Positions 14,880-60,069 of a DNA stretch of 64,000 nucleotides are shown here, in pieces (the first letter of the stretch is position 1; every line of letters starts with the position of its first letter). Source of the stretch: Geosiphon pyriformis uo1 (Eukaryota; Fungi; Glomeromycota); assembly GCA_016748015.1 (NCBI GenBank), contig JAAOMT010000139.1, positions 62,946 through 126,945 of the forward strand. The letters are read 5' to 3'. Below the pieces are notes generated by a model. The model was not told the origin of the DNA. It saw only the letters and a program-made list of their open reading frames with translations, and did not search any database. A program made the translations under genes and the position numbers.

Positions 14880-14940
14880 TTTAGTGCTTCCTGTGAGGTT
14901 ATAAATTCACAGAGACAGAGCACTCTGAAAATTCACAAAA

Positions 14941-22250: not shown

Positions 22251-22269
22251 GAACTATGATTCAAAAAAA

Positions 22270-22790: not shown

Positions 22791-22863
22791 TTAAACAGAA
22801 TAGATGGTAAAAATCTAATTTGAGATTTTTACATTTTTAAAAAATACCTCCAAACAGCCACAA

Positions 22864-23237
22864 CAATTAACATGGCAATGATAATTCAGTTTGTTTATCT
22901 TCCAATAGTCTTAACAATTAATGCGACAATGATAATTCAGTCACTTATCTCCTAATGACTTTAACAATCAATACAACAATAATAATCAGATTCACTTACC
23001 TTTGGATGGTCTCAGTAATCAATACAACAATAGTAATTCACTTACTTTTAGACAGCTACAACAATCCACATGAATATATTAATCAAATTTGCTTATCTCT
23101 AAATGGTTATGGCAATTAATGTAACAATGATAATCAGATTTATTTACTTTTGAATAGCCTTGACAATCAATGTAACAATGATAATTTACTTCACTTATCT
23201 TTGGATAGTTATGGCAATTATCACAGCAATGCTAAAT
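22864..23237. repeat. ~51-bp minisatellite, about 7 degenerate units
   Basis: Unit CAATYAATGYRACAATGATAATCAGATTCACTTAYCTTTGGATRG.. Confidence 0.85.
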
Positions 23238-24982: not shown

Positions 24983-24996
24983 AAAGAGAGAGATAA

Positions 24997-26036
24997 TATT
25001 ATCCAAGTAGAAAAACTGATCCAAAGTTATGAAAAAATGTGACCAGAATATAACATAACACAGAATAGTGTACAATAATGTTGAATAACATGTTATAATT
25101 TAGGATAGTGCAGAATAATATGTTACAACATAGAATAACACAAAATAACACAGAATAACACTAGATAATATGTTATAATATAGGATAACTAGTAATAATA
25201 TAGAAGAATGAAGCAATAACAGAAATAACAAAGCAATAGTTAAAAATAATAAAACAATCAGATACAATCCTGTAAAACCAAAAGAAAGTATAAAAGTAAG
25301 TAATTATAGAAGATAGAAACAGACAAACAGATAGATATGAACCACTAAACAAAAATCAAATATCCATACCTTTTTATCATTTATTATATTCCATATTCAT
25401 CTTCTAAAATAAATTAATTATTAAGAAATCAGAATTATGAATTCATGTTCTCGAACTTTGTAGAATTTATGTGAATTAACCATTGTTTTATATCTTTATT
25501 CCAAGACAGATGCCCTTAATATAACTGCCTCAAACTATTAATGATTTGGACCAATCACTTTTAATCACAGCAATTAACAATACTAATTCTTTTCTTTCTT
25601 TTTTTATTTTTTTTATTTTTATTTTTATTTTATTTTTTTTATTCTTTTGTGGAGTAGCAACATAGTAAAATCAACTGTCTGAGAATAAACTTTATGATAG
25701 CCTGATAAAAGAGGGAAGCTCCTCTTAAGTTTTTGGATATTAACATTATTTTGATAGCTTATCAGAAAGGTAAAAAAACAATGCTAGATTCTAATAACTG
25801 TGCTTGTTAGCTCAGAGAAAAAAGCTTACTTTTATAAGAAGTTGCAATCAGCAAGAACCAAAACTCTGTATCTTATAACCAAAAAACTTAATGGGTAAAT
25901 TCACAACCAGTAAAACAAGACTTTTAGAAACTGATAATCAAGATTAAGTCACCAAAATTATACAAAACACATCTTATCAATAATTGACTACATCAAACAT
26001 TATCATCTCTCTACTCTACCAAGTTTACCCATAACA
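24997..26036 (+). repeat. 3' LTR of element B
   Basis: Repeat of 13841-14879. Confidence 0.92.
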
Positions 26037-29766: not shown

Positions 29767-30736
29767 TGTTACCAGACAAAATTAAAGATATTGTTTAGCA
29801 TGAAATTACTCTTATAAATCTTATTATTAATTAGCATATATTATCATTTCAAATTATCACTTATTACATTAGCAAAATATCTGAAATTATCATTTAATTA
29901 ATAACCCAATTTGTACATAACACAAATGTAACCTAAGTGCGATGATCAATCATGCAATACCCTAAAATATGTAACATTTAAAAGTTTGCCAAAATTTGTA
30001 GAAATTCACCAAAATAATTGCTAGTTTACCGAAATATCTAATAGTTTGTAGAAATAACTTGTAGTTTGCCGAAATGTATCTTTAGTTCAGCAAAATTGTA
30101 GAAAAGAGCAAAGTTCAAGTTCATGGAATAGTGTTACAACAAGTTGTATAAAAAAAGAGCTTCTCTTTTCAAGAAAATATATCTTACTTTAGATTTATTA
30201 CTTAGAACCATTTCTATATACACAAAAAGAAATAAATATCAAATAATTTGAAAAACCAAATTCTTTAATTATTGCACTTGGAAAATCCCCAAAACCCAAC
30301 TAACGTTTTGAAATTGATTAGCTACCAATTTCAGTAACACTGTTAGTGACTCCAGGCCTGAATAGAAAATGTTTCCCTTAACAGAATTCTATTTCTTTTA
30401 CATTTCTTTTATTTTCTTATTATAATCATTAGGGTAGCTTATAGACGAGATTCCTGTAGAAGAGTTGACTTTCACAGCAAAGTAACTACACATTTTTAGT
30501 GAGCTTTCAGATGAGCAATTCCTAGGAAAGAGTTGATGTTTACTACAATGTAACTACACAAAGCAACTGGCACAGAATTGGCCATTCTACTTATAAGCCT
30601 AGCAGTTCAAATTATAGGAGATAATTTGAAGATAAAATTCAGTTATTGGAGGTTCAAACACTTCCCATAGTTATGAATTAACAGCATTACAACAAACATA
30701 CAAGAGCTAAGAAGAAACCAAAAACATCCAGTAACA
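29767..30736 (+). repeat. 5' LTR of element C
   Basis: TGTTACC..GTAACA; TATAAA after the U3 repeats. Confidence 0.93.
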
Positions 30737-30782
30737 TTTGGTGCTCTTCCACGGAAATAACACAGTAACAACAACTTCAAAA

Positions 30783-33700
30783 GTGGTGACTCAAACAAAT
30801 TCAAGAACTCTAGAGTATTATCAGTCAATCTACACCCACTGCAAGCAGAGATTTGACATCCCAAACAAAATTGAAACATTCAAGAAAACACTTTACCAGT
30901 ACATTAAAAATCACATCAACAATTATCTTTTTGGAGACTACAACATTTCAGAAGTTAGACTCAACTTATATGAAAACTTAGTACATCACTCTCGTCTAAA
31001 CACTCAGGATTTTAACAGTCAAACACTTGAAACATATTTCCAAGAACTCAACTTCAATATCATTCAGTATTGTAAAGAGAATTACCCAGTAGAACAGAAA
31101 TTTTCTCTTAGTTTTGAATCAGAAACAGAAGAAAGAAAAAAAAAAGGAAACAAAAACTCAGAACTACTCCCAATACATCTAAAACCACTGCCAAACATTT
31201 ACAAACTCCAGAACCAGGAACCAGCTTTAAATTACCATTCTCAATCACACTATTTCCAGCTTTACTTGCTCAACTGCAAACACCAAGCTCACCACTTATT
31301 CAGTTTTCAAGAATAGAAGATTTTCAGTCATCCAAAAGCCCTATTCAACAACAGGAACCAATATTAACCAGCACAAACCTTATTAACTACTTAGCAGAAA
31401 ATTGAAGTGAAGAGACCAAATTAGAACAAGAAACAGAAGACTCAGAAAATAAAGAAGAAATGGCTTCCACATATATCGCAAAAATCTCTGAGTTCACAGG
31501 AAAAAACAGTGAAACCAGTTCTCAAGAATGGCTTGACAAAGTCTCAAAAGCAGGAAATGCAAATGGTTGGAATGCTGTCAGAATGTTAAAAGCAATTCTA
31601 TACTTCTTATAAGGAACAGCCAGTGAATGGTTTAAAAACTTGGAAGCCCCACTAGAAGACTGGGAAGCATTCAAAACTGCTTTTCTAAAACAGTTTACTG
31701 ACAATAACACTTCCATTACCCTTCAAAATCGGTTCCAAAATATCAAGCAAGAACTAAGTAAATCAGTTATAACCTATTTTGGAAAATTCAACAAACTGCT
31801 TAGAAGGATTCACCAATTGGAAACAAATAAATACTACTCCAATGCACAAATCTTGGATCAATTCATTGCTGGACTAAAAGACAAACTTATTAAGAAAGTT
31901 TGCCCACATACACCAAAAGATTTAGCCACTGCTATTTAACAGGCAAAAAACTATGAAATGGCCATGGAAAAAGCCAACCATATCAAACTTGTTAACCTGG
32001 CTATTGGAGAAACCAGCTCAGCAGCTAAAGAAAAGATTGACCAATTAACCAAGAAAGTTGAAAACTACTTCACCAACTAACAGCAACAACAACAGCTGCA
32101 GCAATCACAACAACCACAAAAATACCAACCCCCACAATGATACAATCAAAACAACTTTGGACCACCATCCAACAACCAAATCCAAAATTGCCATTACTGT
32201 GAAATCTCTGGCCACTGGAAAAAAGATTGCAGAAAGCTACAACAAGACCAACAAAATAGGAGTAATTAACGTTACCCTCTACCACAGCAATCTTATTATC
32301 AACTACCACTACCAGTTTACTATCCACCAAGACCCCAATACCAAAATAACTATTATCAGCCCATCTTACAGCCAATCCAACAGCAATACCAACAATCACC
32401 CACACAATATTATCAAGTACCTATTCGAAAATTGATTACACAAAATCAATTCACATCACAAAACCGATACCAAGTAAACAACAATAGAATCAATTCGAAT
32501 AACCAATTGGTTCCCTAAAATTCTACTCAACCAAGACCCAACCACTATCACACTCAACCCAGTTATTTAACAATGCCAGAAGAACAGAATTTTCACTATA
32601 CTGCACTCTCGGAAGGTAAAGCTGCAGCACAACAACAAAATTTTTTTCATAACCACATCATTATTCCACCAGCTAAAATTGCTGAAAATGCCAATCTCTC
32701 TGATATCTTTCCTTTCGAGTTCAAAGCCAATGAATCACTATTTCTACTTAGCAATGCTGCTGCAAATGAACAGAAAGCAATCACAGCTATGTATACTGAA
32801 GCTGAAGTTGAAGAAAAAACAATTCGCTTAATCTTAAACAGTGGATCTACTGGAAGTATTATTACTTACCAGTTGATACAACAGTTAAAAAGAAATGTTG
32901 ACTGACCAGCTTAAACAGTAATTGTCACTGCTGATGGCATGAAAAAGACTCCAGTGAGAAAAATTGACAATTTTCCATTCACTCTTGATGGAATCACCAT
33001 TCCAGTCAAAGTTCTTGTAATGGATGCTCCTTAGTATTAAGCCCTTGTCGGAAATGACTGGCTTCAAAAAGCCAATGTGAAATTAGACTGGGAAACCCAA
33101 AAACTACAAATCTCTTATCAAGGACAACATGTTCAAGTACCTGCCACTTGTGGTACATTCAACAAATGCTCCAAAAAAACCCCAGCTTTTGAATTTGAAC
33201 CAGAAGAAGAAAAACCAATAATCGAAACATTCATGGCTCTTGGGTCAATGTCCAATTGGGCTGATGAAACTGAACAAGAACATTTTACCCCACACTCTGA
33301 ACTCAAAACCCCTGGATGGAATACCCTTTACTCAAAGACTGAGCCAAGAAAACAACACCCCTACATTCATCTTAAATATAAGGACTGCTACAAGAAACTA
33401 TCGTCAATAGGAGCTTGTATTTCACCTAAGAAAGAATATAAAAGTCATACCTGTTACTATTGCAAGGCCTGCCATCAAGAATGATGGAGCCACTTGATTA
33501 AAAGAAGCAGAAAATAGGATAGAACACTCTGTCTTACTTGTGGAAAGCAGCTTTCCGATAAATGTGACTGGATTGATGTTGCATTTAAAGGAGGAGTTTA
33601 CAATCAAACTTGTTAATATGCTTTTTTTATTGCAGAAAAAGTAAAACGTGGAACACCTTTCAATGTCACATACAACAGTGCCTTCAGCAAACTCTATCAC

Positions 33701-36370
33701 TACCCCCATGATGCTGAAATGATCTATGAACTTGCCATGGTTTTAATTAACAGAGGAACCAAAGAAGATGTCCTTCAAATAAAAAAAGCTGAATATATTA
33801 AATATACATTGGAATTAGCTGGATTCAATTATGAAGATGAAGTAAAAGTATACCACCAAATCACAAGTTACACCTACTCAATCCAAGAAGCTCAAATTCA
33901 ATGATTAGAGCAAATAAACATTAAATTATATAAGGAATGTATAATGCCATGCAATAAACAATAGTGTCCTGAATGCTATGCTCTTAGCATTCCATTGCTC
34001 AGCAAAAGCGATAAATACGAAATTGAATTCGGAGAACCTGAAGCAACAGAAAAAATTGAAACAACACCTATTTACCTCATTGAAAATCAGCCTGCTTTAC
34101 AACTCAAATACTTCAACAACAATGGACAAGGAATAAAACCGGAAAAAACACATGAAATTGATGCTGGATACAATCTACGATATCTAGAAAAAAACACTTT
34201 GGTTTTTCAACCAAATTCTCTTATCAAAATCAACTTCAAAATTGCCTTCGAAATTCCACCAGAAGCAATGATCCAAATCGCTTCACGATCATCATTGGCA
34301 AGCAAAGGAATCAATGTTAAAGGAGGAATTATAGATGCTGGATATACAGGAGACATTACAATCATGTTACAAAATGAAACCGATAAACTTTTTCAGATTG
34401 AACATGCTGAAAAAATTGCTCAAGCTATTTATTTACCCTTAATCAACATTTCAGGTTTACAATTAGTCAGTCAAAGAGAACAATTGGGAAAAAGTGGAAG
34501 AGGAACCAATGGTTTTGGTTCAACTGGACAATTCACAGTTCCAGTAAACATAGCTCTTAATGAACAAAGTAAATCTCACCAGATTCTACAACTTCCACAA
34601 CCAATTACTATTTCACCTTTTGGAGAACACCCTGAAATTTACACTTGTGAAAAGCCAACAACCACACAACAAATTTTTGAGTCCAATGAACGAATCTGCT
34701 TGGAACATAATATCTCAATCCCAAATATTTACATTCTAGAAGGAACAAAGAAAGTCCAAGTTACTTTTTACAACCCCAATAATTACCCCATAGTTTTATT
34801 AAATAACTTAAAAATTAGAGTTATTCACAGTAATATCTTTCAACAAAAATTACCCCAAACAGTCCCCAATTTCTCTGAAATTATTGGACATTCATTACCA
34901 AAAATCAACCCAAACCCCAGCTTTGAAAACTACCATGTTGTTATGGAAAAACTATCTTGAATCAACATAAAACAACTTGAACCACAACAACAGAGCCAGC
35001 TCAAAGAGCTAATTGTAGAATTTGCCAATATCTTTGCTGAAAACAACAATGACTTAGCAAGAACTGATTTGGTTCAACACCAAATCTATACAGGAGATGC
35101 CAAACCAAGGTGACAGCAAGCCTACCAAGTTGCTCTAGAAAGTCACCAATTTATCCGTGAAGAAGTACAATGGATGCTCAACAATAGGCTTATTCAACCA
35201 TCAATAAGTCTATAGGTCTCACCTATGGTCTTAGTTAAAAAGAAAAATAGAAAGATATGATTTTGTGTTGATTATTGACAACTCAACAGTATCACCATTG
35301 GAGATGCCTATCCCCTTCCCTGAATTGATAATATGTTGGATGTCCTTAGAAAATCCAAATACTTTTTAACATTAGATTTAGAGAATAGATATTGGCAAGT
35401 TGCTATGGATCCCGAAGATTGTCCCAAAACAGCATTCACCACTCAAGGAGAAAATTATGAGTTCAACGTAATGCCTTTCAGATTATACAATACACCAGCA
35501 ACATTCCAAAGACTCATGGATGTTGTTTACAAAGGTCTTCTTTGGAAATCAGTAGTTGTCTATCTCGATGATACTGATGTTTATTCACCATTTTTTGAGT
35601 TACACTTAAAACACTTGCAAGAAGTTTTTCAACGATTACAGAAAGCAGGATTGAAACTGAACATCAAAAAATGCTACTTCGGAAAAACAAGTTTGGCCTT
35701 TCTTAATTACATTGTTAGCAAAGATGGAATTAAACCAGATCCTGGAAAAATCAGCACTGTTAAAAACTTCAAGACCCCATGAAATACCACAAAATTAAGA
35801 GAATTTATTGGATTAACATCCTATTACCAAAAATTCATCAAAGGATTCTCAGAAATCGCAAAACCCCTCAACCAGCTCACTACTAAAAATGTCGAATATA
35901 AATGAACGGAAGAACACCAAAAAGCTTTTGAAATTCTCAAGGAAAAGCTGACAACAGCTCCAATTCTTGCCTATCCAGACTTCAGTAACCAATTTCAACT
36001 AGCTACAGACACTTTTTACACTGCCTTTGGTGCCATCTTATCACAATTAGATGACAACAGAAATGAGCAAATAATTGCTTATGCTAGCAGAACATTAAAA
36101 CCAGCTGAGAAAAACTACCCTGCCACAGAACTAGAAACAGCAGCCATAATTTGGGCCCTATATCACTTCAACCTTTATCTCAGGCCTAAAAAATTTGACA
36201 TTATCACTGATAATATTGGACTCAAATAGCTTCAAAACAAAAACACTCAGCTGAATGCCAAACAAACCTGATAGACAGGATTTTTAGCTAACTACTAATA
36301 CATTGTACATCACAAACCAAGAAAACTTCATACCAATGTTGATTGTCTCTCAAGAATGAGACAAGATTAG
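30783..36370 (+). pseudogene. Gag-PR-Cys-rich-dUTPase-RT-RNaseH polyprotein of element C
   Basis: ORF fragments from 31640 to 35333 are all in one frame; YLDD at 35561; ends RMRQD*. Confidence 0.92.
34105..34530 (+). CDS. dut: dUTPase domain within Pol (best-preserved copy)
   Basis: Five motifs in order: AGY(N)L, SRSSL, GIIDAGYTG, KIAQAI, RGTNGFGSTG. Confidence 0.93.
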
Positions 36371-36416
36371 AACATAAAACCAACACCCATTTGAATTAAC
36401 AACAAGACAACAAACA

Positions 36417-37802
36417 ATGAACCCCGAAAACTACAACAATCTTAAACAATATTTGGAGACATTAACAATTCCAACAGATTGGTCTGCAGATAAAAAACAC
36501 CAATTACAATAACAAGCCAAACAATACCTCTTACACAACAACATGATTTATTATTGAAACTTCAGAAACCCAGACAATTCACTCAGATTAATACAAGAAC
36601 ATAAAAAAGAAACTATTTTATATAACATACATTCAGATCCTTCATCAGCACACTTAGGAAAAAACAGCACCACCCAGAGAACACTAGAATATTACTTTTG
36701 GCCTTGAATGAGAAAAAACATTCATGAATACATTAAGTCTTGTGATAGTTGTCAAAGAAGAGAAAGAATTCACCCTACAGAACCTTTAAACCCAATTAAA
36801 GTTGGACAGCCTTTTGACTGAATTGGTATCAATTTAGTCGGACCACTACCTATTACAAACCAAGGAAACTGTTATATTGTAGTAGCTGTAGACTATCTCA
36901 CCAAATGGCCTGAAGCCAGAGCCATTCAACAAGCAAATACAAAATCAGTAGCAAATTTCATCTATGAAAACATCATTTGTAGACATAGATGCCCAATAGA
37001 ACTTTTATCTAATCAAAGAACACATTTTGTGAACAATTTAATCCAAGAAATTTATGAACAATTTAATGTCAAGAGACCATTATCTTTGCCCTACTATCCA
37101 CAAACAAATAGACTTGTAGAATATTTCAACAGAATATTGTGTGAATTATTAGCCAAAGTTTTAACCAATTTTGAGCAAGAATGGGATCTCTTTATTCCGT
37201 TAGTGTTACTAGCATATAGAACACTAAAACATGACACCACAAAAAACACACTATTTGACTTAACCTATGGAAGAACAGCAATGTTACCAATTAATTTTAC
37301 TGTGGAACCATACCCAGTATAGCCAATTAATAAAGAAAACTTTTAGGAAACACTTCGACGAAGAGCCTACAATCTTCTTAGCATATTGAAAGGAAAATGA
37401 CAAATAGCAGCCACCCATATTGAACACTCCCAAGCTTAACAAAAAGAATGGCATGACAACAAATTGCCACCAGTCACCAATAAATTTAAAATTGGAAACA
37501 AAATTCTCTTACACAGAACTAAAGCTGAAAAACAATGGAGTGGGAAATTTGAAAATAAATGAGATGGACCATTTTTTATCCATGAAGTTCTAGACAATAG
37601 ATCATATAAGCTAAGACTTGATGACAAAATCCTAGCAAAAGTTGCACATGGAGATCATTTAAAACACTATAATTCCAGAAACAATCCTAAACCATTAATT
37701 CCACAAATTAGTACACATTCCCTTTTAATTAATCCTGAAGATATTTCCCGAAATTTAGAACCAATAGTTGTCATTGAACAACCTTCCAACTTGAACACTT
37801 AA
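36417..37802 (+). pseudogene. Integrase of element C (separate ORF)
   Basis: Starts MNPENY; HSDPSSAH..CDSC; DDE core; GPF-like C-terminus. Confidence 0.9.
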
Positions 37803-37923
37803 CTTAAATTTATTATTATAGTTATCTCCTTATAATTTAGAAACAATCTCACAAAAACAAAGCAAAAATAACATAAAAACCCATACACCAAAAATAATTT
37901 TCTTTTATTTCAAATTGCTTATA

Positions 37924-38643
37924 ATGATTATTTCTCAAAACATTTAACAATTATCCTAAAAACTAATGTTAGCTTTAAAAACAATACCCAAATTATTCAT
38001 TACTGTTACTGGAAACTACATTAATTATACCTAAACAGAAGTAGTTACAAATTTAGCCCCAAATTCATGAAAATATTACCCATATAAGAAGAATACAAGA
38101 AGTTATTCTGAAATTCACCTGCCAGAACTTTTAAAGCTTGCTTTAAGAGAAAACTTAATGTTCATTCCTATTAGTATTCTACCAAATACTACTATTTAAC
38201 AAAAACTTCAACTGTGTCTTAATAAAGAAAACTACGACTATATTCTAATATATAGATATTTCTATATTGGAAAAACACTTCACGAACAAAAATGGGAGCT
38301 TACAGCAGTAAACTTCACAAAAGAAGCTATTTAAAAACAACTCCACAATGAATTCAAGACAACAGCTGGACCTACAAACAGTCATTATAAACTAAGAGCT
38401 GCTTTTAGACTTTATGACCTATTCCACACCTGTGAAAATGTCCTATAAAACCCAATTTTACAGCCTTTGAAGATTCAATACATTGGAAAGCTCACAGAAC
38501 TGAAATTTCAACAATTTTCAGACCAAATTTCTTCAATAATTTTGGATTATTATCTGGAAATTACAGACAGTACTTGGACTTTGATGGAGCTCAGTCTTAA
38601 GGAGGAGGTTATATTACCAGACAAAATTAGAGATATTGTTTAG
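37924..38643 (+). pseudogene. Accessory ORF3 of element C
   Basis: 720 bp, colinear with ORF3 of E; CAA>TAA-type stops. Confidence 0.8.
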
Positions 38644-38701
38644 CATAAAATTACCCTTATAAATCTTATCATTAATTAGCATATATTATCATTTCAAATT
38701 A

Positions 38702-38721
38702 NNNNNNNNNNNNNNNNNNNN
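38702..38721. other. Assembly gap (20 N) with a 234-bp contig overlap (38468-38701 = 38722-38955)
   Basis: N run flanked by identical sequence. Confidence 0.95.
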
Positions 38722-38865
38722 TGAAGATTCAATACATTGGAAAGCTCACAGAACTGAAATTTCAACAATTTTCAGACCAAATTTCTTCAATAATTTTGGA
38801 TTATTATCTGGAAATTACAGACAGTACTTGGACTTTGATGGAGCTCAGTCTTAAGGAGGAGGTTA

Positions 38866-39848
38866 TATTACCAGACAAAATTAGAGATATTGTTTAGCAT
38901 AAAATTACCCTTATAAATCTTATCATTAATTAGCATATATTATCATTTCAAATTATTACTTATTACATTAACAAAATGTCCAAAATTATCATTTAATTAA
39001 TAATCTAATTTGTACATAACACAAATGTAACCTAAGTGTGATAATTAATCATGCAATATCCCGAAATATGTAACATTCAAAAGTTCACCAAAATTTGTAG
39101 AAATTTGCTGAAATAATTGATAGTTTACTGAAATATCTAATAGTTTGCAGAAATAACTTGTAGTTTGCTAAAATATATCTTTAGTTCAGCGAAATTATAG
39201 AAAAGAGCAAAGTTCAAGTTCATGGAATAGTGTTACAACAAGTTGTATAAAAAAAAGCTTCTCTCTTCAAAAAAATATATCTTACTTTAGATTTATTACT
39301 TAGAACCATTTCTACACACACAAAAAGAAATAAATATTAAATAATTCGAAAAACCAAATTCTTTAATTATTGTACTTGGAAAATTCCCAAAACCCAACTA
39401 ACATTTTGAAATTGATTAGCTACCAATTTCAGTAAAACTGTTAGTGACTCCAGGCCTGAATAGAAAACATTTCCTTTAACAGAATTCTATTTCTTTTATA
39501 TTTTTTTTATTTTTTTTCTTTTATTTTCTTATTATAATCAATAGAGTAGCCTACAGACGAGATTCCTGTAGAAGAGTTGACTTTTACACCAAAGTAACTA
39601 CACATTTTTAGTGAACTTTCAGATAAACAATTCCTGGGAAAGAGTTGATGTTTACTACAACATAACTACATAAAGCAACTGGCACGGAATTGGCCATTCC
39701 ACTTATAAGTCCAGCAGTTCAAATTATAGGAGATAATTTGAAGATAAAATTCAGTTATTGGAGGTTCAAACACTTCCCATAGTCATGAATTAACAGCATT
39801 ACAACAAACATACAAGAGCTAAAAAGAGACCAAAAACATCTGGTAACA
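38866..39848 (+). repeat. 3' LTR of element C
   Basis: Repeat of 29767-30736. Confidence 0.92.
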
Positions 39849-43639: not shown

Positions 43640-44648
43640 TTTTTTTTCTTTCTTATGTTCTAAATTCTTTAAAGAGCACATTTTTGAAAAAAAATTAATT
43701 TTTTTTTATTATTTTTTTGCAATATTTTTCAACAAATAATTTTTTTGTGATAAACTTGGTAACTGTCTTAGATAGCAATATGTCTAAAAAAAAAGTGCTT
43801 AAAAATATTTTTCACAGTTTTGTTAAAGACTTTTTCTCTTAAAAAAAAAGATTTCTGTTGGTAATATCAAACACTCTGATAATAAAAAAGATATTTTTTT
43901 GATCAAATCTGGTGTTGGTAATAGTATATATTTAAATATAAACAGTAAATTAGATAATAGTAAAGATAATAGTATTTTATTAAATGTTAATAATAACTCT
44001 TTTCTTGGCTTAATAGCAACTATTTCTAAAGCTAAAAGAGTGAATATTGATTTGAAATATAGTTTTCTTATTAACATAATTAATTATAGTATAGATGAAA
44101 ATAAAAAACTTTTTTCTCTCTTTTTCAATATTTCTTTAAATAAAAGATAGATTAACTTAAAAATTGTGAAAACTCAAATCAAAGTAGCTGTAAAAAAATT
44201 TTTTATACTGAATATTAATTTTTTGACAATAGAAAAAAAATCAACAATTATAAAAACTCAGATGATCAAAATTTTTTTTTCAATAATCAATGGTTTTAAG
44301 AGAGCCACTACTTTGTTAAAATTTGAAAAAATAATCAGATCTATATTTATATTAAAAAAAAACATAAGAAAAGCTGTATTATTAATTGAGAAAAAAAGAA
44401 TTATTATAAACAACAATTTTAAAAAACAAAAATTTTATTCAGATTGGACTGTGGTAATCAAAAAAATTTTTATAAATATGTTAAAAAAAATAATTATCAT
44501 AGTTTTTTCCAAGTTTGGTCAAGTAATATCAATCCAATTACAACTAATTAAGCTGTGACAAAAGACTATAGTAGAATTTGTCAAATTAAGTTAACTCAAT
44601 TAATTGGTATCTAAGTAGTTATTTCTAATTGATAAAAACTTAATATGT
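43640..44648 (+). mobile_element. LINE-2 of this window: 5' part (ORF1 fragment), ended by LTR element D
   Basis: ORF 44166-44558 is homologous to ORF 2736-3260 (SDW.VVIKKI..SKF). Confidence 0.75.
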
Positions 44649-46696
44649 TATTACCCAAGTAGAAAAACCAATTTAAAGTTATAAAAAAAATGTGACCAAA
44701 AACATAATGACATAAAATAACACAGAATAATACAAAAAAACACAGAATAATACAGAATAACTTAAAATAACATAATACAAAACTTGATAATATGTTATAA
44801 CACAAAATAACTAATTGAAACATAAGATAATTAGTAATAATATAGAAAAATAAGACAATAACAGAAATAGCAAAGCAATAACTAACAAGAATAAAACAAT
44901 TTTGTAAAACCAAAAAAAATGTATAAAAATGAGTAGTTGTAAAAGTTAAAAAAACAGCCAGAAAAGAATTAATTTTTCTTTTCCTTATAATTATTACATT
45001 TTATAAAAATAAAAGACTTATTTAAAAACTCAAAATCATTAATACATAGTTATCAATTATTTTATGCTTGAATTGAATTAATTCTTGTTTTATATTTTTG
45101 TTCCAGAACAAATGTTCTTAGTATAAATGTCTTGAACCCTTAATAATCTGAACCAATCACTCTTGATTATGACAATTGACAATATTAATTTATTTATTTT
45201 TATTTTTTTTTATTCTCTCTTATAAAGCAGCAACATAGAAAAATTGACTATCTGAAAATAGATTTTATAATAACCTGATAAAAAAAGGAAGCTTTTCCTA
45301 AGTTTGGATATTAATATTATTTTAATAGCTTATTAGAAGGGCAAAAAAACACAGCCAAATCCTAATAAATACACTTATTAGCTTGAAAAAGATAGCTTAT
45401 ATTCACATACAAGAAGTTACAATACCATAAAACATCTCTTTGTGCCTTATAACCAAAGAATTCCATGAGTAAATTCATATTAATCAAATAAATTTTTAAA
45501 GACTAATAATACTAATATACCAAAAAAGCCTACCAAAAAAAAATCATCAAAAGTTTTCTAAAAACCCAAATTTTGAGCACTAAACATTACTATTATACTT
45601 TACCTAGTTTACCTATAACATTTAGTGTTCTTTGTAAGATTATAAAATCCACAAAAACAGAGCACCCCAAAAATTTACAAAAGTAATGATTATTAAGACA
45701 GTAAAAAAAGATCACTTACCATATAGAAAATCCTTATTTCAATATTTTAGGAAAGACTTAGAGATACTATCAGAAACTATTAATGCAGAAACTAATTTCT
45801 GTTATTACTTGTATAACAAAATTAACTGTTTATTAAGCCAAGCAATGAACACAAAAAAACTCGAAAAACAAATTTATTAAAAGTTATTGACATACTTAAC
45901 AGAAATTACTACTTGAGTCATAGCTAAAACTCTTCATATAATTGATAAAAAAATTGAAGAATACATAACATAACAGTATTCTCAAGTAAAAGGAAAACAA
46001 ATAGCAAAGTCTGATTTTATAGAATCTGAGTCTGAATTTAATAATACAATAGTTGCATAAAAACAAGTCCAATTTACAGTTAACAAGAAATCAAGATTTT
46101 TTTTTTCAACTATTCTGTTATATTATCAGACATCAAAAAGTAGAATTTTATTTAACCAACTTATAGAAATACAAACAAAAACTCCTGGAACTCTGTATCT
46201 CTAAGGTTATAACAATCAAAATTCTTAGAAAAATACAAATTATTATTTTGAAATCTTATCTCAACAGCCAACCAACTTAGTGAAAGCATATTTTTTTGGG
46301 CACTACCACTAATACAGCTCCTAACAAAGTTAACAACCACTCCTACAAAAGAAATAACTATCTTGTTACTTATTAGTTTTAACAAAAAAAAACAACCAAC
46401 ATTAGCACTTAAAGAACAATATAATACACTACCACCAAACCTTTTGTTATTAGCAAGTCAACTACCTTTTGTTCCTTAAATAATAGCTTACTGAGATATT
46501 GTTAAATTGAAGAAATTCTCTAATAAAAAAGATAATATATATACTTGAATAGTAAAAGCCAAAAAAGCAACTATTGCTAACAATTAGGATAATACCAAAA
46601 TCATTTAAGTGCTGCTTTTTTTTTTGACAGGAACTACAGACTTCTGATACCAAAGTCTCAAAGAAAAACCAACTAGTTTTGCTGCTTTTAAACTTA
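44649..46696 (+). mobile_element. Truncated family-2 LTR element D (5' LTR 44649-45620, PBS, 5' gag)
   Basis: LTR and gag are homologous to element B; ends abruptly within gag. Confidence 0.85.
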
Positions 46697-50192: not shown

Positions 50193-51148
50193 TGTTACCA
50201 GACAAAATTAGAGATATTATTTAGCATGAAATTATCTTATAATTCTTATCATTAATTAGCATATATTATTGTTTCAAATTATCACTTATTACATTAGCAA
50301 AAATGTCCGAAATTATCATTTAATTAATAACCTAATTGCAATGATTAATCATGCAATACCCCGAACTATATAACATTCAAAAGTTCACCGAAATTTGTAG
50401 AAATTTGCCAAAATAATTGATAGTCACCGAAATATCTAATAGTTTGCAGAAATAACTTGTAGTTCGCCGAAATATATCTTTAGTTCAGCGAAATTGTAGA
50501 AAATAGCAAAGTTCAAGTTCATAGAATAGTGTTATGACAAGTTGTATAAAAGAAGAGCTTCTCTCTTCCAGAAAATGTATCTTACTTTAGATTTATCACT
50601 TAGAACTACTCCTACACACACAAAAAAAAATAAATATAAAATAATTCGAAAAACCAAAAACTTTTTAATTATTGCACTTGGAAAATTTTCAAAACTCAAC
50701 TAACGTTTTGAAATTGATTAGCTACCAATTTCAATAAACTGTTAGTGACTTCAGGCCTGAATTGAAAACGTCTCTCTTAACAGAATTCTATTTCTTTTAC
50801 ATTTTTTTTATTTTCTTTTTATTTTCTTACTATAATTATTAAGGTAGCCTACAGATAAGATTCCTGTAGAAGAGTTGACTTTCACAGCAAAGTAACTACA
50901 CATTTTTTTTAGTGAGCTTCCAAATGAGCATTTCCTGAGAAAGAGTTGACATTTACTACAATGTAACTACATAAAGCAACTGGCATGGAATTGGCTATTC
51001 TACTTATAAGCCCAGCAGTTCAAATTATAGAAGATAATTTGAAGATAAATTCAGTTACTGGAGGTTCAACCACATTCAGAAAACATGAATTCACAGCAAA
51101 CAAGCATCGACAATATTTAAGAAAAGAGACCAAAAACCTCCAGTAACA
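50193..51148 (+). repeat. 5' LTR of element E
   Basis: TGTTA..TAACA; repeat of 59086-60069. Confidence 0.95.
50383..50550 (+). promoter_or_regulatory. U3 array of ~6 GTTCGCCGAAAT-like motifs followed by TATAAA (50545)
   Basis: Motif array and TATA box present in all family-1 LTRs. Confidence 0.6.
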
Positions 51149-51193
51149 TTTGGTGTTCTCCCACAGTAACAACACAGCAAAAACAACTTCAAA

Positions 51194-54100
51194 GTGGTGA
51201 CCACACCAGACGCAACAACTCTAGAGTATTACCAGTCAATTTACACTTACTGCAAGTAAAGATTCAACATTTCAGACAGAATTGAAGTTGTCAAGAAATC
51301 AGTATACCAATATATTGAAAACCGCATCAACAATTATCTTTTTGGAAATTACAATATCTCAGAAGTTAGAAGCAACCTTTACAATAATTTAGCACACTAT
51401 TCACAATTGGGAACTGAAGACCTTAACAGTAAAACACTTGCCACTTACTTTTACGAACTTAATTTTAACATTATCAAATACTGTGAAGAAATATATCCAG
51501 TGCAGTTTCAATACATTATTGATTTTGAATCAGAAACAGAAACAAGCAACAAAGGCAAAAACAAATTGAAGCAATACTTAAGAACCACCCCAAATACTCC
51601 AACACTACTGAAAACAACTGCCAAATATTTACAAACACCTGAACAAGGAACCAGTTCAAAATTTCCACTTACTAACACACTTTTTCCAGCTTTACTTGCA
51701 CAAGCACAAACACCTAATTCACCCTTGAATTGATTTGCAAGACCAGAAGATTTTATATCACTCAGAAGTCTCACCAAACAACAAGAACCCCTGCAAATTA
51801 ATTCCAATCTTCTTGATTTTCTAGCTGAAAATCAAAGTGAACACTCTGAGACAGCAGCAAACAAAGAAAACGACTCTGAAATAACTAAAAAAGAATCAAT
51901 AAACAGTGAAAACAAAGAAGACAAAATGACAACATACATTGCAAAAATTCCTGAATTCAATGGAGAAGATATTGAGACCAGTTCCCAAGAATGGCTTGAC
52001 CAAGTTACTAAAGCTGGAAATGCAAATGGATGGAATGCTGCCAGAATGTTAAGAACAATTCTCTACTTTCTCAAAAGAACAGCAGGAGAATGGTTTGAAA
52101 ACTTGGCTGCCCCATTCAATGATTGGAACACTTTCAAAGCAGTCTTTCTTGAACAGTTCACCGACAATAATACCTCTATCACCCTTCGCAATCATTTTCG
52201 AAATATCAAACAAGAACCCTCTGAATCTGTTATAACTTATATTAGGAAATTCAACAAACTTCTCAGATGAATTCGTCAACTCGAAACAAATAATTATTAT
52301 TTCGATGCTCAAATCTTGGATCAATTTATTGCTGGTTTAAAAGATAAACTAATTAAAAAGGTTTGCCTACATGTGCCAGAAGATTTAAACTCTGCCATAC
52401 AGCATGCAAAAAGATATGAAATGGCCATGGAAGAGGCCAATCGCACAAAACTTGTAAATTTGACAATTAGAGAAACCAGCTTAGCAGCTGAGAAAAAAAT
52501 TGACCAATTCACAAAGAAAGTTGAAAACTATTTCACCAATTAACAACAACAGCAACCTCAAAGATATCAACCACCCCAAAGATGAAATCAAAATAATTTT
52601 GCACCACTTTCCAATAACCAGTCTCAGAATTGCCATTACTGTGAAATCTCTGGCCACTGGAAAAGAGATTGCAGAAAGCTACAATGAGACCAACAAAATA
52701 GGAGTAATCAATGTTATCCTTCACCACAGCAATCTTATTATCAACCACCACCACCAGCTTACTATCTACCAAGACTCCAATACCAAAATAACTATTATCA
52801 GCCTGCCCCACAGCCAATCTAACAGCAATACCAACAACTACTTACACAACATTATCAAGTACCTGCTTGAAAACTGATTACACAAAATCAATTCACACCA
52901 CAAAACTGATACCAAGTAAACAACAATAGAATCAGTTCAAACAACCAATTGGTTCCCCAAAATTCCACTCAACCAAGATCCAACCACTACTACATTCAAC
53001 CCAGTTATTTAACAATGCCAGAAGAACAAGATTTTTACCATACTGCACCCTTGGAAGGTAAAGCTGCAGCACAATAACAAAACTCTTCCTATACTCTTAC
53101 TACAATCCCACCAGCCAGAATTGCTAAAAACGCTAACCTTTTAGATATATTCCCTTTTGAGTTCAAAGCAAATGAGTCACCATTCCTGCTTAGCAATGCA
53201 GCCGCCAATGAACAAAAAGCAATCATGGCTATGTATACTAAAGCAGAAGTCGAAAGAAAGACAATTTGCTTGATCCTAAACAGTGGATCCGCCAGAAGCA
53301 TTATCACAAACCAGTTAATACAACAGTTGAAGAAAAATGTTGACCGACCAGCTCAAACAGTAATTGTCACTGCCAATAGCATGAAAAAGACCCCAGTAGG
53401 AGAAATTGACAATTTTCCATTTACTCTTAATGGAATCACCATTCCAGTCAAAGTTTTTGTAATGGATGCATCCCAGTACTAAGCTCTCATCAGAAATGAT
53501 TGGCTTCAAAAAGCCAATGCTAATTTGAATTGGGAAACACAAAAGTTAACAATCTCCTACCAAGGACAATATGCCTGGGTACCTGCCACTTGTGGTACAT
53601 TCAACAAATGCTCTGAAAAAGCCCCAGCTTTTGAATTTAAACTGGAAGAGGAAAAACCCCTCATTGAAACATTCATGGCTTTTGGATCAATGTCTAACTG
53701 GGCCAATGAAACAGAACAAAAACATTTTACCCCACACTCTGAACCCGAAACCTCTGGATGGAATATCTCTTACTCAAAACCCGAACCAAGGAAACAACAC
53801 CCCTATATTCCCCTTAAATGTAAGGACTATCACAAGAAACTATCATCAATGGGAGCCTGTATTTCACCTGAAGAAAAATATGAAAATCATACTTGTTATT
53901 ACTGCAAGGCTTGCCACAGAGAACGATGGGACCATCTAATAAAAAAGAACAGAAAATAGGACAATACTCCTTGTTTGACTTGTGGAGATATGCTACCAGA
54001 AAAATGCAATTGGATTGATGTAGCCATGAGAGGAGGAGTCTGTGATCAGACCTGCCAATATGCTTTATCAATTTCAGAAAAAGTAAAAAGAGGAACACCC

Positions 54101-56812
54101 TTTAATGTGGCATACAACAGTGCTCTTAACAAACTTTATTACTACCCCCATGATGCTGAGATGATTTTTGACCTAGTAATAGCATTAATTAATGGAGCTA
54201 CCAAAGAAGATGTTTATCAAATAAAGGAAGCAGAATACATTGAATACATCATGGAATTAGCTGGATTCAATTACAAAGATGAAGTAGAAGTCTACCACCA
54301 AATTGCAAGTTACACCTACCCAACTCAAGAAGCTCAAATTTAATGATTAGAGCAAATGAACATTAAACTATGTAAAGAATGCATTATGCCTTGCGATAAA
54401 CAGTAGTGTCCTGAATGCTACGCTCTTAGTATCCTCTTGCCCAGCAAAAATGATGAGAACAAAATTGAATTTGGAGAATCTAAAGCAATGGAAGAAATTG
54501 AAACAACACCTATCTACCTTATCAAAAATCAGTCTGCCTTACAACTTAAATACTTTAACAACAATGGACAAGAAATAAAACCCAAAAAAGCACACGAAAT
54601 TGATGCTAGATATGACCTAAGATATCCAGACAAGGTTACTTTTGTTCTCAAACCCAAATCTCTTACAAAAATCAACCTCAAAATTGCACTTGAAATCCCA
54701 CCAGAAGCAATGGTTCAAATCATCTCCTGGTTCTCTCTGGCAAGCAAAGGAATTAATATCAGAAGAGGAATAATTGATGCTGGATATACTGGAGACATTA
54801 CAGTAATGCTTTAAAATAAAACTAACAAACCATTCAAGATTGAACATGCTGAAAAAATTGCCCAAGCTATTTACTTACTCTTAATCAACATTTTGGGTTT
54901 GCAAGTAGTTAATCAAAGAGAACAATTAGGAAAAAGTGATAGAGAAATCCAAGGTTTTGGTTCAACTGGATGATTCACAGTTCCAGTTAATATAACTCTT
55001 AACACACAGAACAAATCCCACCAGATTTTCAGACTTTCACAACTAATTACCATCTCACCTTTTGGAAAACATCCGGAAATCTATACCTGTCCAAAGCCAA
55101 CAACCAAACAACAAATTTTTGAGTCTAATGAACAAGTCTGCTTGGAACATAATATTTTGATCCCAAATATTTATATTCCAGAAGGAACAAAGAAAGTCCA
55201 AGTTACTTTTTACAACTCCAATAATTACCCCATAATTTTATTAAATAATTTAGAAATTGGAGTTATTCACAGTAATATATTTCAACAAGAATTACCACAA
55301 ACAGTCCCTGATTTCTCTGAAATTATTAGACATTTACTACCAAAAATCAACCCAAACCCCAGCTCCGAAAACTACCATGTTGTCATGGAAAAACTATCTT
55401 GAATCAACATGGAACAACTTGAACCACAACAACAGACCCAGCTCAAAGAGCTAATTGTAGAATTTGCCGATATCTTCACTGAAAACAACAATGACTTAAG
55501 AAGAACCAATTTGGTCCAACACCAAATTTATACAGGAAATGCCAAACCAAGAAGACAACAAGCATATCGAGTTGCTCCAGAAAGCCACCAATTCATCCGA
55601 GAAGAAGTACAACAAATGCTTAACAATAGGCTCATTCAACCCTCTATGAGTCCTTGGGCTTCACCTGTAGTGCTAGTTAAAAAGAAAAATGGAAAGATCC
55701 GATTTTGTGTTGACTATCAACAATTCAACAGTATTACAATTAGAGATGCCTATCCCCTTCCTCAGATTAATGACATGTTAGATGCTCTTGGAAAATCCAA
55801 ATACTTTTCAACACTAGATTTAGAAAGCGGTTACTGGCAAGTTGCTATGGATCCCAAAGATTACCCCAAAACAGCATTCACTACCCAAGGCAGAAATTAT
55901 GAGTTCAATGTAATGCCTTTCGGATTATGCAATGCACCAGCAATGTTTCAGAGATTAATGGATGTTGTGTACCAAAAACTTCTTTAAAAGTCAGTAGTCG
56001 TTTATCTTGACAATACTGATGTTTATTTTCCATCATTCGAATTATACTTAAAACACCTGTGAGAAGTTTTTCAACGATTATGAAAAGCAGAACTAAAACT
56101 CAATATCGAAAAATGCTACTTTGGAAAAACAAGCCTGGCCTTCCTTGGTTATATCATTAGTAAAGATGGAATCAAACCAGACCCTGAAAAAATTAGTGTT
56201 GTCAAAAACTTCAAAACTTCTTAAAACACTACAGAACTAAGAGGATTCATAGAATTAGCATCCTACTATCAAAAGTTTATTAAAGAATTTTCGGAAATTG
56301 CAAAACCCTTCAACCAGCTCACCACCAAAAACGTTGAATACAAATGGACTACCGAACACCAAAAAGCTTTTGAAATTCTCAAGGAAAAACTAACAACAGC
56401 TCCAATTCTTACCTATCTGGATTTCAGCAACTAATTTCAACTAACTACAGATGCTTTGTATACTGCCTTTGGTGCCATCTTATCACAACTAGATGACAAT
56501 GGAAATGAGCGAGTAATTGCTTATGCTAGCAGAACATTAAAACCAGTTGAGAAAAACTATTCTGCCACAGAACTAGAAACAGCAGCCATAATTTGGGCCC
56601 TATACCATTTCAACTTTTATCTTAGGCCTAAAGAATTCGATATTATCACTGATAATATTGGACTCAAATGGCTTCAGAACAAAAATACTCAGCTGAATAC
56701 AAAACAAACCTGATGGACAGGATTTCTAGCAAACTATCGATACATAGTACATCACAAACCAGGAAAACTCCACACCAATGTTGACTGTTTCTCCAGAATG
56801 AGACAAGATTAG
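51194..56812 (+). pseudogene. Gag-PR-Cys-rich-dUTPase-RT-RNaseH polyprotein of element E (single frame, ~1870 codons, point-mutation stops only)
   Basis: ORFs 51407, 51926, 52316, 53225, 53525, 53975, 54437, 55142, 55409 and 56456 all share one frame. Confidence 0.93.
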
Positions 56813-56864
56813 AAAAACACAAAAACCAACACTCAACTTAACCAACCAAAAGAGCCAACAACCA

Positions 56865-58276
56865 ATGAATTTGGAAAACTACAACGATCTCAAACAATAT
56901 TTGGAAACATTAACAATCCCAACAGATTGGTCTCCAAATGAAAAACATCGACTACAACAACAAGCCAAACAATATTTTCTACACAACAACATTATTTATT
57001 ATCGAAATTTCAAAAACCCAGACAAACCACTCAGATTAATACAAGAACAAGAAAAAGAGACTATATTATACAACATGCACTCAGATCCTTCATCAGCCCA
57101 CTTCGGAAAAGACAGCACCACTCAAAGAACACTAGAATACTACTTTTGGCCTCGAATGAAAAAAGACATTCACGAATATGTCGAATCTTGTGATAGTTGT
57201 CAAAGAAGAGGAGGAACTCGCCCTACAGAATCTTTAAACCCAATCAAAGTTGGACAGCCTTTTAACAGAGTTGGTATCAATTTAGTCAGACCACTACCTA
57301 TCACAAACCAAGGAAACCATTATATTGCAGTAGTTGTAGACTATCTCACCAAATGGCCTAAAGCCAGAGCCATTCAATGGGCAGATGCAAAATCAGTAGC
57401 AAACTTTATCTATGAAGACATTATTTGTAGACATAGATGCCCAATAGAACTTTTATCTGATTAAGGAACACATTTTGTGAACAATTTAATCCAGAAAATT
57501 TGTGAACGATTTAATATCAAGAGACTATTATCTTCACCCTATCATCCACAAACAAATGGACTTATAGAATGGTTTAACAGAATATTGTGTAAATCATTAG
57601 CCAAAGTTTCAACTGATTTTGAGCAAGAATGGGATCTCTTTATTCCATCAGTGTTACTAGCATATAGGACACTAAAACAAGATACCACAAAACACACACT
57701 ATTTGATTTAACTTATGGAAGGATGGCAATGTTACCAATTAGTTTCACAGTGGAAACATACCCAGCACAATCAATCGATAAAAACAATTTTCAAGAAATG
57801 CTTCAGCAAAAAGCCTACACTCTGCTTAGCACATTAGAAGGAAAACAATGAATAGCAGCCACCCATATTGAACACTCCCAAGCTCAACAAAAAGAATGGC
57901 ATGATGACAAATTGCCTCCAGTTACCAATGAATTTAAAATTGGAAACAAAGTTCTCTTACACAGAACTAAAGCTGAAAAACAATGGAGTAGAAAATTTGA
58001 AAATAAATGAGATGGACCATTCTTTATTCATGAAGTTTTAGGCAATGGATCATACAAGCTAAGACTTGATGACAAAATTTTAGTAAAAGTTGCACATGGA
58101 GATCGTTTGAAACACTATAATTCCAGAAACAATCCTGAACCATTAATTCCACAAATTGGTACACATTTCCCTTTAATCAATCCCAAAGACATTCCCCTTT
58201 AATCAATTCCAAAGACATTCCCCAAAATTTAGAACCAATAGTTGTCATTGAACAGCCTCCCAACTTGAATACTTAA
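56865..58276 (+). pseudogene. Integrase of element E (separate ORF, +1 frame)
   Basis: ORFs 56865-57464 and 57477-57851; H2C2 zinc finger and DDE motifs. Confidence 0.92.
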
Positions 58277-58397
58277 TTTAAATTTATTATTATAGTTATC
58301 TTCTTATAATTTAGAAACAATCTTACAAAAACAAAACAAAAATAACATAAAAACTCATATATCAAAAATAATTTTCTTTTATTTCAAATTGCTTATA

Positions 58398-59117
58398 ATG
58401 ACTATTCCTTAAAACATTCAACAATTATCCCAAAAACTAATGTTAGCTTTAAAAACAATACCTGAATTATCCATTACTGTTACTGAAAACCACATTAATT
58501 ATATCCAAACAGAAGTAGTTACAAATTTAGCCCCAAATTTATGAAAATATCACCCGTATAAGAAGAACACAAGAAGCTATACTGGAATTCACTTGCCAGA
58601 ACTTTTAAAGCTTGCTTTAAGAGAAAACCTAATGCTCACTCCAATTAGTATTCCACCAAATACTACAATTCAACAAAGACTTCAACTGTGTCTCAATGAG
58701 GAAAACACTGAATATCCTCCAATCTATAGATATTTTCACATTGGAAAAACACTCTACGAATGGAAACTGGAACTTACAACAGCAAACTTCACAAAAAAAG
58801 CTATTCAGAAACAACTCCACAACGAATTCAAGACAACAGCTGGATCAACAAACAGTCGCTACAGGCTCAGAGCTGCTTTTAGACTTTATAATCTATTCCA
58901 CACCTGTAAAAACATACTACAAAACCCAATTTTTCAATCTTTAAAGATTCAATACATTGGAAAGCTCACAAAACTGAAATTTCAACAATTTTCAGACCAA
59001 ATTTCTTTAATAATTTTGGATTATTATCTGGAAATAACAAACAGTACTTGGACTTTGATGGAGCTCGATCTTGAGGAGGAGGTTATGTTACCAGATAAAA
59101 TTAGAGATATTATTTAG
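58398..59117 (+). pseudogene. Accessory ORF3 of element E (239 aa; two transition-type stops)
   Basis: ATG at 58398 is in frame with ORF 58593-59117; runs through the PPT into the 3' LTR. Confidence 0.82.
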
Positions 59118-60069
59118 CATAAAATTATTTTATAATTCCTATCATTAATTAGCATATATTATCGTTTCAAATTATCACTTATTACATTAGCAAAAATGTC
59201 CGAAATTATCATTTAATTAATAATCCAAATTGTACATAACACAAATGTAACCTAATTGCAATGATCAATCATGCAATACCCTGAACTATGTAACATTCAA
59301 AAGTTTGCCGAAATTTGTAGAAATTCACTGAAATAATTGATAGTTCACTGAAATATCTAATAGTTTGCAGAAATAACTTGTAGTTCACCAAAATGTATCT
59401 TTAGTTCAGCGAAATTATAGAAAATAGCAAAGTTCAAATTCATAGAATAGTGTTATAACAAGTTGTATAAAAGAAGAGCTTTTTTCTTTGAGAAAATGTA
59501 TCTTACTTTAGATTTATCACTTAGAACCACTCCTACACACACAAAAAAAAATAAATATAAAATAATTCGAAAAACCAAAAACTTTTTAATTATTACACTT
59601 AGAAAATTCTCAAAACTCAACTAACGTTTTGAAATTGATTAGCTACCAATTTCAATAAACTGTTAATGACTTCAGGCCTGGATTGAAAATGTCTCCCTTG
59701 ACAGAATTCTATTTCTTTTACATTTTTTTTATTTTTTTTTTATTTTCTTACTATAATCATTAGGGTAGCCTACAGACAAAATTCCTGTAGAAGAGTTGAC
59801 TTTCACAGCAAAGTAACTACACATTTTTTTTAGTGAGCTTCCAGACAAGTATTTTCTGGGAAAGAGTTGACGTTTACTACAATGTAACTACATAAAGCAA
59901 CTGATACAGAATTGGTTATTCCACTTATAAGCCCAGCAGTTCAAATTATAGGAGATAATTTGAAGATAAATTCAGTTATTGGAGGTTCAACCACATTCAG
60001 AAAACGTGAATTCACAGCAAACAAGTATCAACAACATTTAAAAAAAGAGACCAAAAACCTCCAGTAACA
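59086..60069 (+). repeat. 3' LTR of element E
   Basis: Repeat of 50193-51148. Confidence 0.95.

Follow-up and report, generated by a model that had tools for sequence, protein, structure and literature searches.

A 64-kb stretch of the Geosiphon pyriformis genome (64,000 nucleotides of contig JAAOMT010000139.1; hereafter the window) was found by self-comparison to contain five long terminal repeat (LTR) elements, A to E. Typical Ty3/Gypsy elements have gag plus a single pol that encodes protease (PR), reverse transcriptase (RT), RNase H (RH) and integrase (IN). In element E (50193..60069, plus strand, LTR to LTR) the integrase lies apart from Pol, and very probably is a gene with its own conserved AUG. 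The original prediction for this DNA had described an unusual layout with a Gag extension, a Cys-rich module, a dUTPase, a separate integrase and a 3′ open reading frame (ORF), and all of these were found in E.

All features of E are on the plus strand. The 5′ LTR (50193..51148) and the 3′ LTR (59086..60069) both end in TG...CA, the former being 91% identical to the latter, and 2 nt past the 5′ LTR lies a primer-binding site (51151..51165) that begins with TGG and has a sequence common to A, C and E. A single gag-pol frame (51194-56812), read with X at stop codons, contains Gag, CCHC knuckle, protease, Cys-rich module, dUTPase, RT and RNase H. It opens with an N-terminal extension of Gag (51194..51925), which has a putative GTG start and is free of ATG in all frames, followed from the first ATG by the capsid Gag (51926..53170), which matches Retrotrans_gag and Ty3_capsid, contains the CCHC knuckle (52631-52672) and has a Gln/Pro-rich tail. 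The aspartic protease (53222..53557) has Asn at the catalytic Asp position in E; DSG is the most frequent form of this active site among database copies. Next come the Cys-rich module (53819..54418), with 16 conserved Cys and outside known families, the dUTPase (54581..54970; PF00692, E-value 1.2e-15), a conserved spacer domain 3′ of it (54971..55390), and RT with RNase H (55676..56812), which ends at the pol stop (56810-56812). After a spacer of 52 nt (56813..56864), A/C-rich and ATG-free, the integrase gene (56865..58276) starts with ATG in a different frame from gag-pol and encodes the HHCC, core and GPF modules; a 26-nt duplication near 58163-58188 disrupts its tail in the E copy only. ORF3 (58398..59117) runs through the polypurine tract (59073..59082), recognized by its sequence, and ends 32 nt within the 3′ LTR. 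The flanks of E (ttgc/tcac) and A (ccac/ccat) are consistent with a 4-bp target-site duplication altered by C-to-T decay, and those of C and B are mismatched. An ATG-started ORF in the 5′ LTR (50985) was rejected, as the ATG is absent from A and C and no frame is consistently selected.

Elements A (3476..13288, minus strand; 76% DNA identity to E) and C (29767..39848, plus strand; 83% to E) have the same module set and order as E, and the three are mutually 75-83% alike at the DNA level. Element B (13838..26036, plus strand) belongs to a second family and is more decayed than E, while D (44646..46695, plus strand) is a member of the B family reduced to LTR and gag stub. B and D have a common LTR, unlike that of A/C/E. 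The order in B is capsid, knuckle, PR, Cys module, dUTPase, RT, RH and IN, then a weak ORF3 match; its Cys module and dUTPase show 31% and 46% identity, its RNase H contains a 1-nt slip and its integrase begins with ATA in place of the expected ATG. The B integrase is interrupted at ~21690-23730 by part of a Sel1-repeat gene (minus strand, 108-nt repeats). The 3′ end of C spans an assembly gap (N at 38702-38721), and because a 234-nt exact duplication lies on both sides of this 20-N gap (window 38468-38955), the 3′ LTR of C may come from another copy; its flanks mismatch. The predicted sharing of one layout by both families is partly borne out by the module order of A/C/E and B, with B a single heavily decayed copy and D only a stub. 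Of the dissimilarity proposed for the LTRs and gag N-termini, the part concerning the LTRs holds, but the Gag extensions of the two families are weakly homologous (hidden Markov model (HMM) E-values 2e-4 to 6e-4, 11 targets). All 38 matches to residues 700-1500 of the E polyprotein were G. pyriformis predicted proteins, with up to 79% identity, which makes this fungus very likely the host of the elements; LTR elements are reported to make up 41% of this genome (PMC11952901).

The pol stop falls at an identical codon in A, C and E, and the distance from it to the integrase ATG is 67 nt in A, 46 in C and 52 in E; the corresponding spacer of B measures 10 nt. An integrase query retrieved 718 homologues (237-756 aa), and of the 120 among them that were listed, 119 have Met as their first residue, nearly always at the homologous position, including entries of Rhizophagus irregularis and R. 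clarus; one homologue cluster includes Entrophospora fragments. The Met is invariant in column 1 of 89 aligned integrase rows. On the other side, the homologue search was length-limited, and gene callers start at ATG. The relatives with DNA context comprised 80 metagenome loci around integrase matches (numbered with the prefix L); four distant loci on viral contigs were left out of the comparisons. RNase H lies 5′ of integrase in 29 loci, and in none of them are the two fused. Thirty junctions were mapped, and 24 were kept after five with uncertain start mapping and one near-duplicate had been dropped. In this set, 6 spacers measure -20 to +2 nt, 15 fall within 24-99 nt and 3 are longer, and the spacer phases are 7/8/9; this mix of lengths with even phases rules out a fixed frameshift or readthrough as the explanation in the 24 relatives. 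Around the integrase ATG, position -3 is a purine in 34 of 37 loci and position +4 is G in 33 of them, a strong context, and the distances of RNase H and integrase are correlated (r 0.75, 0/5,000 permutations, 31 elements). The separate integrase is thus supported by sequence comparison as an old, widespread trait of the lineage. In the integrase tree, B, A, C, E and the locus L002 form one clade (Shimodaira-Hasegawa-like approximate likelihood ratio test (SH-aLRT) 100, quick tree), so the two families have their layout by descent, and convergence of two independent families on it is not supported.

Some further observations concern Pol and integrase of the relatives. Pol runs 235-586 residues beyond RNase H in L020, L029, L032, L038, L043 and L050, this extension being acidic and then a Cys/His-rich domain with no Pfam match. 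A single in-frame stop is present between protease and RT in six loci (L006:2882, L007:870, L028:902, L030:3290, L050:3358 and L062:1585) and is TGA followed by CTA in 6/6, which we take to be a readthrough-type context. One integrase of the lineage (P0443) is labelled as a protein of an Acidobacteria metagenome-assembled genome, probably through a binning error.

The start of Gag is marked by a lack of ATG codons. The 777 nt of E that run from the end of the 5′ LTR to the capsid ATG (51926) contain no ATG (8.8 expected); the corresponding stretch contains none in A (7.5 expected) and one in C (4.8 expected). The GTG start is putative, E and A having no ATG before the capsid Met. Conservation of Gag begins at Lys-Val, 5′ of which the frame varies between subfamilies, that of C and P0005 differing from that of A and E; the first codon, which in E, C and B is a GTG within AAA GTG G, reads GTA in A, where a second GTG follows. 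Of the 38 polyprotein matches, the 26 that have both landmarks contain 1 Met in the 5,289 residues of the extension, where 85 are expected. Seven intact relatives were compared. In L020, L040 and L050, position -3 of the first ATG is a pyrimidine, the next 489, 819 and 1,074 nt are ATG-free in any frame, and the capsid ATG that follows is strong; in L039 the first Met comes after 207 open codons without ATG, with a strong-context CTG close to the start. The out-of-frame ATG deficit is significant in each of these four (P <=0.0015). Several results count against this picture: the 26 database copies are related, so that their Met count is not independent; AUG depletion is absent from B (8 vs 10.4 expected) and from L006, L012 and L030, i.e. 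3/7 intact relatives; C has its one extra ATG before the capsid ATG; and the out-of-frame deficit in E alone is not significant (0 vs 1.7, P 0.08). On balance, the AUG-free extension in A/C/E and in 4/7 intact relatives points to leaky scanning from GUG. The GTG start claimed in the original prediction is plausible for A/C/E. If GTG is the start and scanning is leaky, two forms of Gag would be made, not one. A His...CxxC motif, a possible zinc site, occurs in the Gag N-termini of L012, L020, L030, L039 and L050, and was not seen in the Geosiphon extension.

The post-integrase ORFs of the relatives are mutually homologous, and the ORF3 profile comprises 600 clusters at 50% identity. The members with names (5 of 10 looked up) are from Gigaspora margarita, Glomus cerebriforme, R. 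irregularis and Cetraspora pellucida, a family span of Glomerales and Diversisporales. ORF3 of E is 29% identical to that of L002 (E-value 6e-16), and a profile without Geosiphon-like rows gave weak matches in the window, 4/5 of them within the ORF3s of elements A, B, C and E. A member of the family lies 3′ of integrase in 21-24 of the 38 loci with sufficient sequence. The L038 member is predicted to be all-helical (predicted local distance difference test (pLDDT) 97.6). The family has conserved arginines, and no transmembrane segment was found in ORF3 (hydropathy peak 0.82; 1/121 family rows >1.8), so it is not an envelope protein. Taken together, these comparisons support ORF3 as an old, widespread and uncharacterized family, predicted to be helical, with two points on the other side: the score that ties Geosiphon ORF3 to the wider family is weak (~6 bits), and ORF3 was not found past the integrase in 14-17 of the 38 loci. 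A Foldseek search with the L038 model gave no match at E-value 0.001, and its best VIA structural match (Z 4.9, root-mean-square deviation (rmsd) 3.2, 69 aligned) is not clear and is no sign of a new fold. A match to DUF1016_N (E-value 0.02) was dropped, as it recurs in 1/121 family members. In L009 (1876-2889) a NUDIX hydrolase lies 3′ of integrase and replaces the usual ORF3.

From these features we infer, as a moderately likely account, that one RNA carries three genes (Gag-PR-RT-RNase H, integrase and a helical protein) expressed by leaky scanning and by restart after stop codons. Some ribosomes would quite probably start at the strong-context GUG and make Gag-Pol with a 244-residue extension, while most scan on to the capsid AUG. 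With perhaps even odds for this step, those that end Pol would resume scanning over a spacer that is short and unstructured, reach the integrase AUG and later, in like manner, ORF3. The free integrase would presumably enter the particle bound non-covalently to RNA or Gag-Pol, and ORF3, as a soluble helical protein with conserved arginines, would most likely bind RNA or the translation machinery. The dUTPase would exclude uracil from cDNA. Polycistronic translation of the pararetrovirus type appears to fit the signals: the short spacers contain 4 ATG vs 12.4 expected (18 spacers, P 0.006), and ATG density is normal in the last 500 nt of pol (2.2-2.7 per 100 nt). A number of results weigh against resumed scanning. 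A termination upstream ribosome-binding site (TURBS; UGGGA) was found in 1/27 junctions, against a background of 2; three spacers measure 162-727 nt, the two longest carry the expected number of ATG, and ORF3 lies 1.1-1.2 kb past the integrase in L040 and L043, all of which fit scanning poorly; the Geosiphon spacers (67, 46, 52 and 10 nt) are all 1 mod 3; and the integrase frame is open back beyond the pol stop in A and E.

The alternative that survives best, though we regard it as unlikely, is that integrase and ORF3 are made from subgenomic RNAs of their own, through splicing or internal promoters, as the accessory genes of complex retroviruses are. The strong Kozak contexts would suit any scanning start, the long ATG-bearing spacers and the remote ORF3 of L040 and L043 are readily accommodated, and in bdelloid LTR elements each ORF3 is described as a spliced transcription unit of its own (PMC5408684). 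However, four spacers have no AG at all, the branch-plus-acceptor pattern occurs in 5/27 junctions against a background of 0-5, six junctions overlap or abut the stop, and the normal ATG density of the pol tail also argues against it. With the splice signals at background and ORF3 not env-like, the complex-retrovirus-like expression that had been predicted was not upheld.

It is more doubtful still that the integrase is reached by internal ribosome entry or through an RNA element in the spacer, with no need for translation of Pol. An RNA structure of 37 nt lies 5′ of the integrase AUG in 18 of the 80 loci (for example L013:586-622, L015:723-759 and L020:5193-5229), at 0-9 nt from it in 17 and at 32 nt in one; all 143 cells pair, with compensatory change in 6/11 pairs, and the Geosiphon spacers are themselves 57% A and 4% G. 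Such a covarying structure adjoining the AUG would suit internal entry, but it is restricted to those 18 loci, is absent from the window, gave no credible Rfam family in the 17 loci scanned, and could equally be a packaging or processing signal. Because a subclade has this structure before the integrase AUG, there may be several routes to an integrase start within the lineage. Resumed scanning is still favoured, at about even chances when set against subgenomic RNAs and internal entry combined.

A +1 shift at the pol stop, which would give a normal Pol-IN fusion in the Geosiphon families and make the split apparent there only, is very unlikely. It would explain the common 1 mod 3 phase of the spacers of A, C, E and B, and the integrase frame of A and E is open from 8 nt 5′ of the pol stop. 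Yet in L002, the nearest relative, an in-frame stop is followed by a spacer of 24 nt, the phases are even over the 24 junctions, Met is kept at the homologous position, and the translation of the spacer is not conserved among copies.

The copies themselves are dead, as E has 24 stops per 1,872 codons. LTR pairs diverge by 3.4% in A, 7.7% in C, 6.6% in E and 17% in B (Kimura two-parameter distance 0.17 in B), mostly through transitions, which outnumber transversions by 152 vs 6 in the pairs of A, C and E. Of the CpG sites in A, C and E 52% differ, compared with 18% of CpA, 15% of CpC and 9% of CpT sites, and CpG is depleted to 0.02-0.28 of expectation in the window beyond its first 2.5 kb; after insertion, copies would have died mainly through C-to-T change. 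Pairwise among A/C/E, the ratio of nonsynonymous to synonymous substitution rates (dN/dS) is 0.11-0.41 across every module, with upper confidence limits <0.7: 0.23-0.33 in the Gag extension, 0.14-0.17 in the Cys module, 0.23-0.27 in the dUTPase, 0.12-0.23 in the spacer domain after it, 0.25-0.35 in the integrase and 0.19-0.41 in ORF3. Wrong-frame values are 0.34-1.53; for ORF3, both pairs with A separate the right from the wrong frames and the C-E pair fails to. These ratios support purifying selection on the modules, as the original prediction had it. That the odd modules are an outcome of decay, nesting or misassembly, as the stops of E, the assembly gap in C and the insert in B might suggest, is scarcely credible, given dN/dS well below 1 in each module, a constant order of Cys module and dUTPase in database proteins (below), and intact relatives with the integrase split likewise.

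The Cys module has 16 conserved cysteines, set in several pairs, and likely binds zinc. Of its 361 homologues, the 120 listed are all from Geosiphon, and it was found in none of the 80 metagenome loci. Stops within it that are common to A, C and E were considered as programmed stops and rejected, database copies being open at those codons. Its model (pLDDT 51 overall) gave no clear fold match, the best being helical only (Z 6.3, rmsd 4.0, 71 aligned), and is not evidence for a new fold. The dUTPase covers positions 6-129 of 129 of PF00692; its motif-3 catalytic Asp is kept in 57/72 matched database copies, and a dUTPase is present in 1 of 11 relative loci that span PR to RT. Cys module and dUTPase occur together in 89 of 142 Geosiphon proteins, 10 of them from divergent families, and the Cys module is 5′ of the dUTPase in 88. 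The two modules thus appear to have been added on the Geosiphon branch and to lie outside the old core, because the Cys module is seen only in Geosiphon and the dUTPase in 1/11 relatives. The old five-module architecture originally proposed is accordingly narrowed to the traits found across the lineage, namely the split integrase, ORF3 and, in 4/7 intact relatives, the AUG-free Gag extension. The spacer domain 3′ of the dUTPase was considered as a second dUTPase fold, which was not detectable (hhalign probability 0.1 with shallow alignments; no PDB sequence match).

Elsewhere in the window, decayed related repeats lie between the LTR elements (26100-29700, 46700-50190 and 60070-62000). To the eye, their translations resemble the reverse transcriptase of non-LTR elements; Pfam gave no match at E-value 0.001. 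The first part of the window (1-2500) is extremely AT-rich, with 8% GC.

LTR retroelements are taken to bring integrase into the particle within Pol. A large lineage in which the integrase is free needs another route for its packaging, and must also translate a gene downstream of a 1,900-codon ORF, which is described as rare for eukaryotic ribosomes (PMC3542737). Intact-looking integrase genes in R. irregularis make these questions of packaging and translation testable. ORF3 and the Cys module are uncharacterized protein families, and hundreds of Geosiphon 'hypothetical proteins' are fragments of these elements, as the 361 Cys-module matches indicate.

By its LTR ends, its domain order and the likeness of its RT to that of Ty3, E is classed as a non-chromodomain Ty3/Gypsy-type element. 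The Pfam domains give the order PR-RT-RH-IN with a capsid/CCHC Gag upstream, and the best PDB match of the RT is Ty3 RT (E-value 7e-43, the next two groups at 7e-29 and 2e-24 in this ranking of matches). The integrase C-terminus has a DGPF motif and an SH3_Tf2-1 match that is below the curated cut-off (E-value 1e-4), and ends ~40 residues past the GPF module; no chromodomain was matched up to E-value 1, and a chromovirus was rejected on the lack of a chromodomain after integrase. Troyka elements are defined by CG...CG ends, a 3-bp target duplication and absence of the GPF/Y motif (PMC12440569), and were rejected in view of the TG...CA ends, 4-bp duplication and GPF module seen here; Kuafuorterviruses were also considered and rejected. 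The elements thus resemble Ty3/Gypsy in their TG...CA LTRs, 4-bp duplication, primer-binding site, polypurine tract, capsid and CCHC Gag, PR-RT-RH-IN order and GPF module, and differ in the separate integrase, a non-env ORF3, the AUG-free Gag extension, the Cys module, and a single, shift-free frame for gag plus pol.

A Gypsy integrase encoded apart from Pol was described neither in the full-text literature searched, a scope that leaves out Repbase, GyDB, supplements and the G. pyriformis genome paper, where the clade may already have a name, nor in the available text of PMC3248453, PMC2774666, PMC11952901, PMC9453076, PMC5408684, PMC11673190 and bioRxiv 2021.03.30.436303 and 2026.05.21.726589. 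To that extent the layout is undescribed as predicted, except that a dUTPase at this place has been reported before. Postia PosPlaTy3-5 has a dUTPase between PR and RT, as here, and dUTPase-bearing elements are also known from Phanerochaete and Tuber (PMC2864245). The dUTPase tree of that study is of chromodomain-containing elements, whereas no Pfam chromodomain is present here, and its available text mentions neither a separate integrase nor a Cys module. The LTR elements of bdelloid rotifers likewise have a dUTPase between PR and RT and a third ORF, but their integrase is listed in pol, and their ORF3s are env, esterase or exonuclease, acquired per family (PMC5408684).

For expression, the closest parallels lie among viruses. 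Calicivirus-type termination-reinitiation was rejected, with no excess of TURBS and only 6/24 relatives having ORFs that overlap or abut. Murine leukaemia virus makes glyco-Gag, an N-terminally extended Gag, from a CUG start; a near-cognate upstream start that extends Gag would be common to both, in another family and another host. Cauliflower mosaic virus, with its transactivator TAV/P6, resembles the present elements in variable overlaps or spacers between ORFs, no TURBS and a 3′-terminal accessory gene, and its reinitiation tolerates distance (PMC5902531). As for differences, ORF3 showed no detectable likeness to TAV and is missing in some split-integrase relatives. We would treat as a long shot the fullest version of the present account, in which an unnamed, phylum-wide Ty3/Gypsy clade of arbuscular mycorrhizal fungi combines leaky scanning with reinitiation after a long ORF, and ORF3 would be the reinitiation transactivator and the first TAV-like factor outside Caulimoviridae; elements with a split integrase and no ORF3 weaken it. 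AUG-free leaky scanning is known in rice tungro bacilliform virus, and this virus and the badnaviruses have, as proposed here, a first start that is weak or near-cognate, then ~0.7-1 kb from which AUG is missing, then a strong AUG (PMC3542737, PMC5902531). They differ in that their upstream start opens a separate ORF, whereas the one proposed here would extend the same frame, in elements that have LTRs and an integrase.

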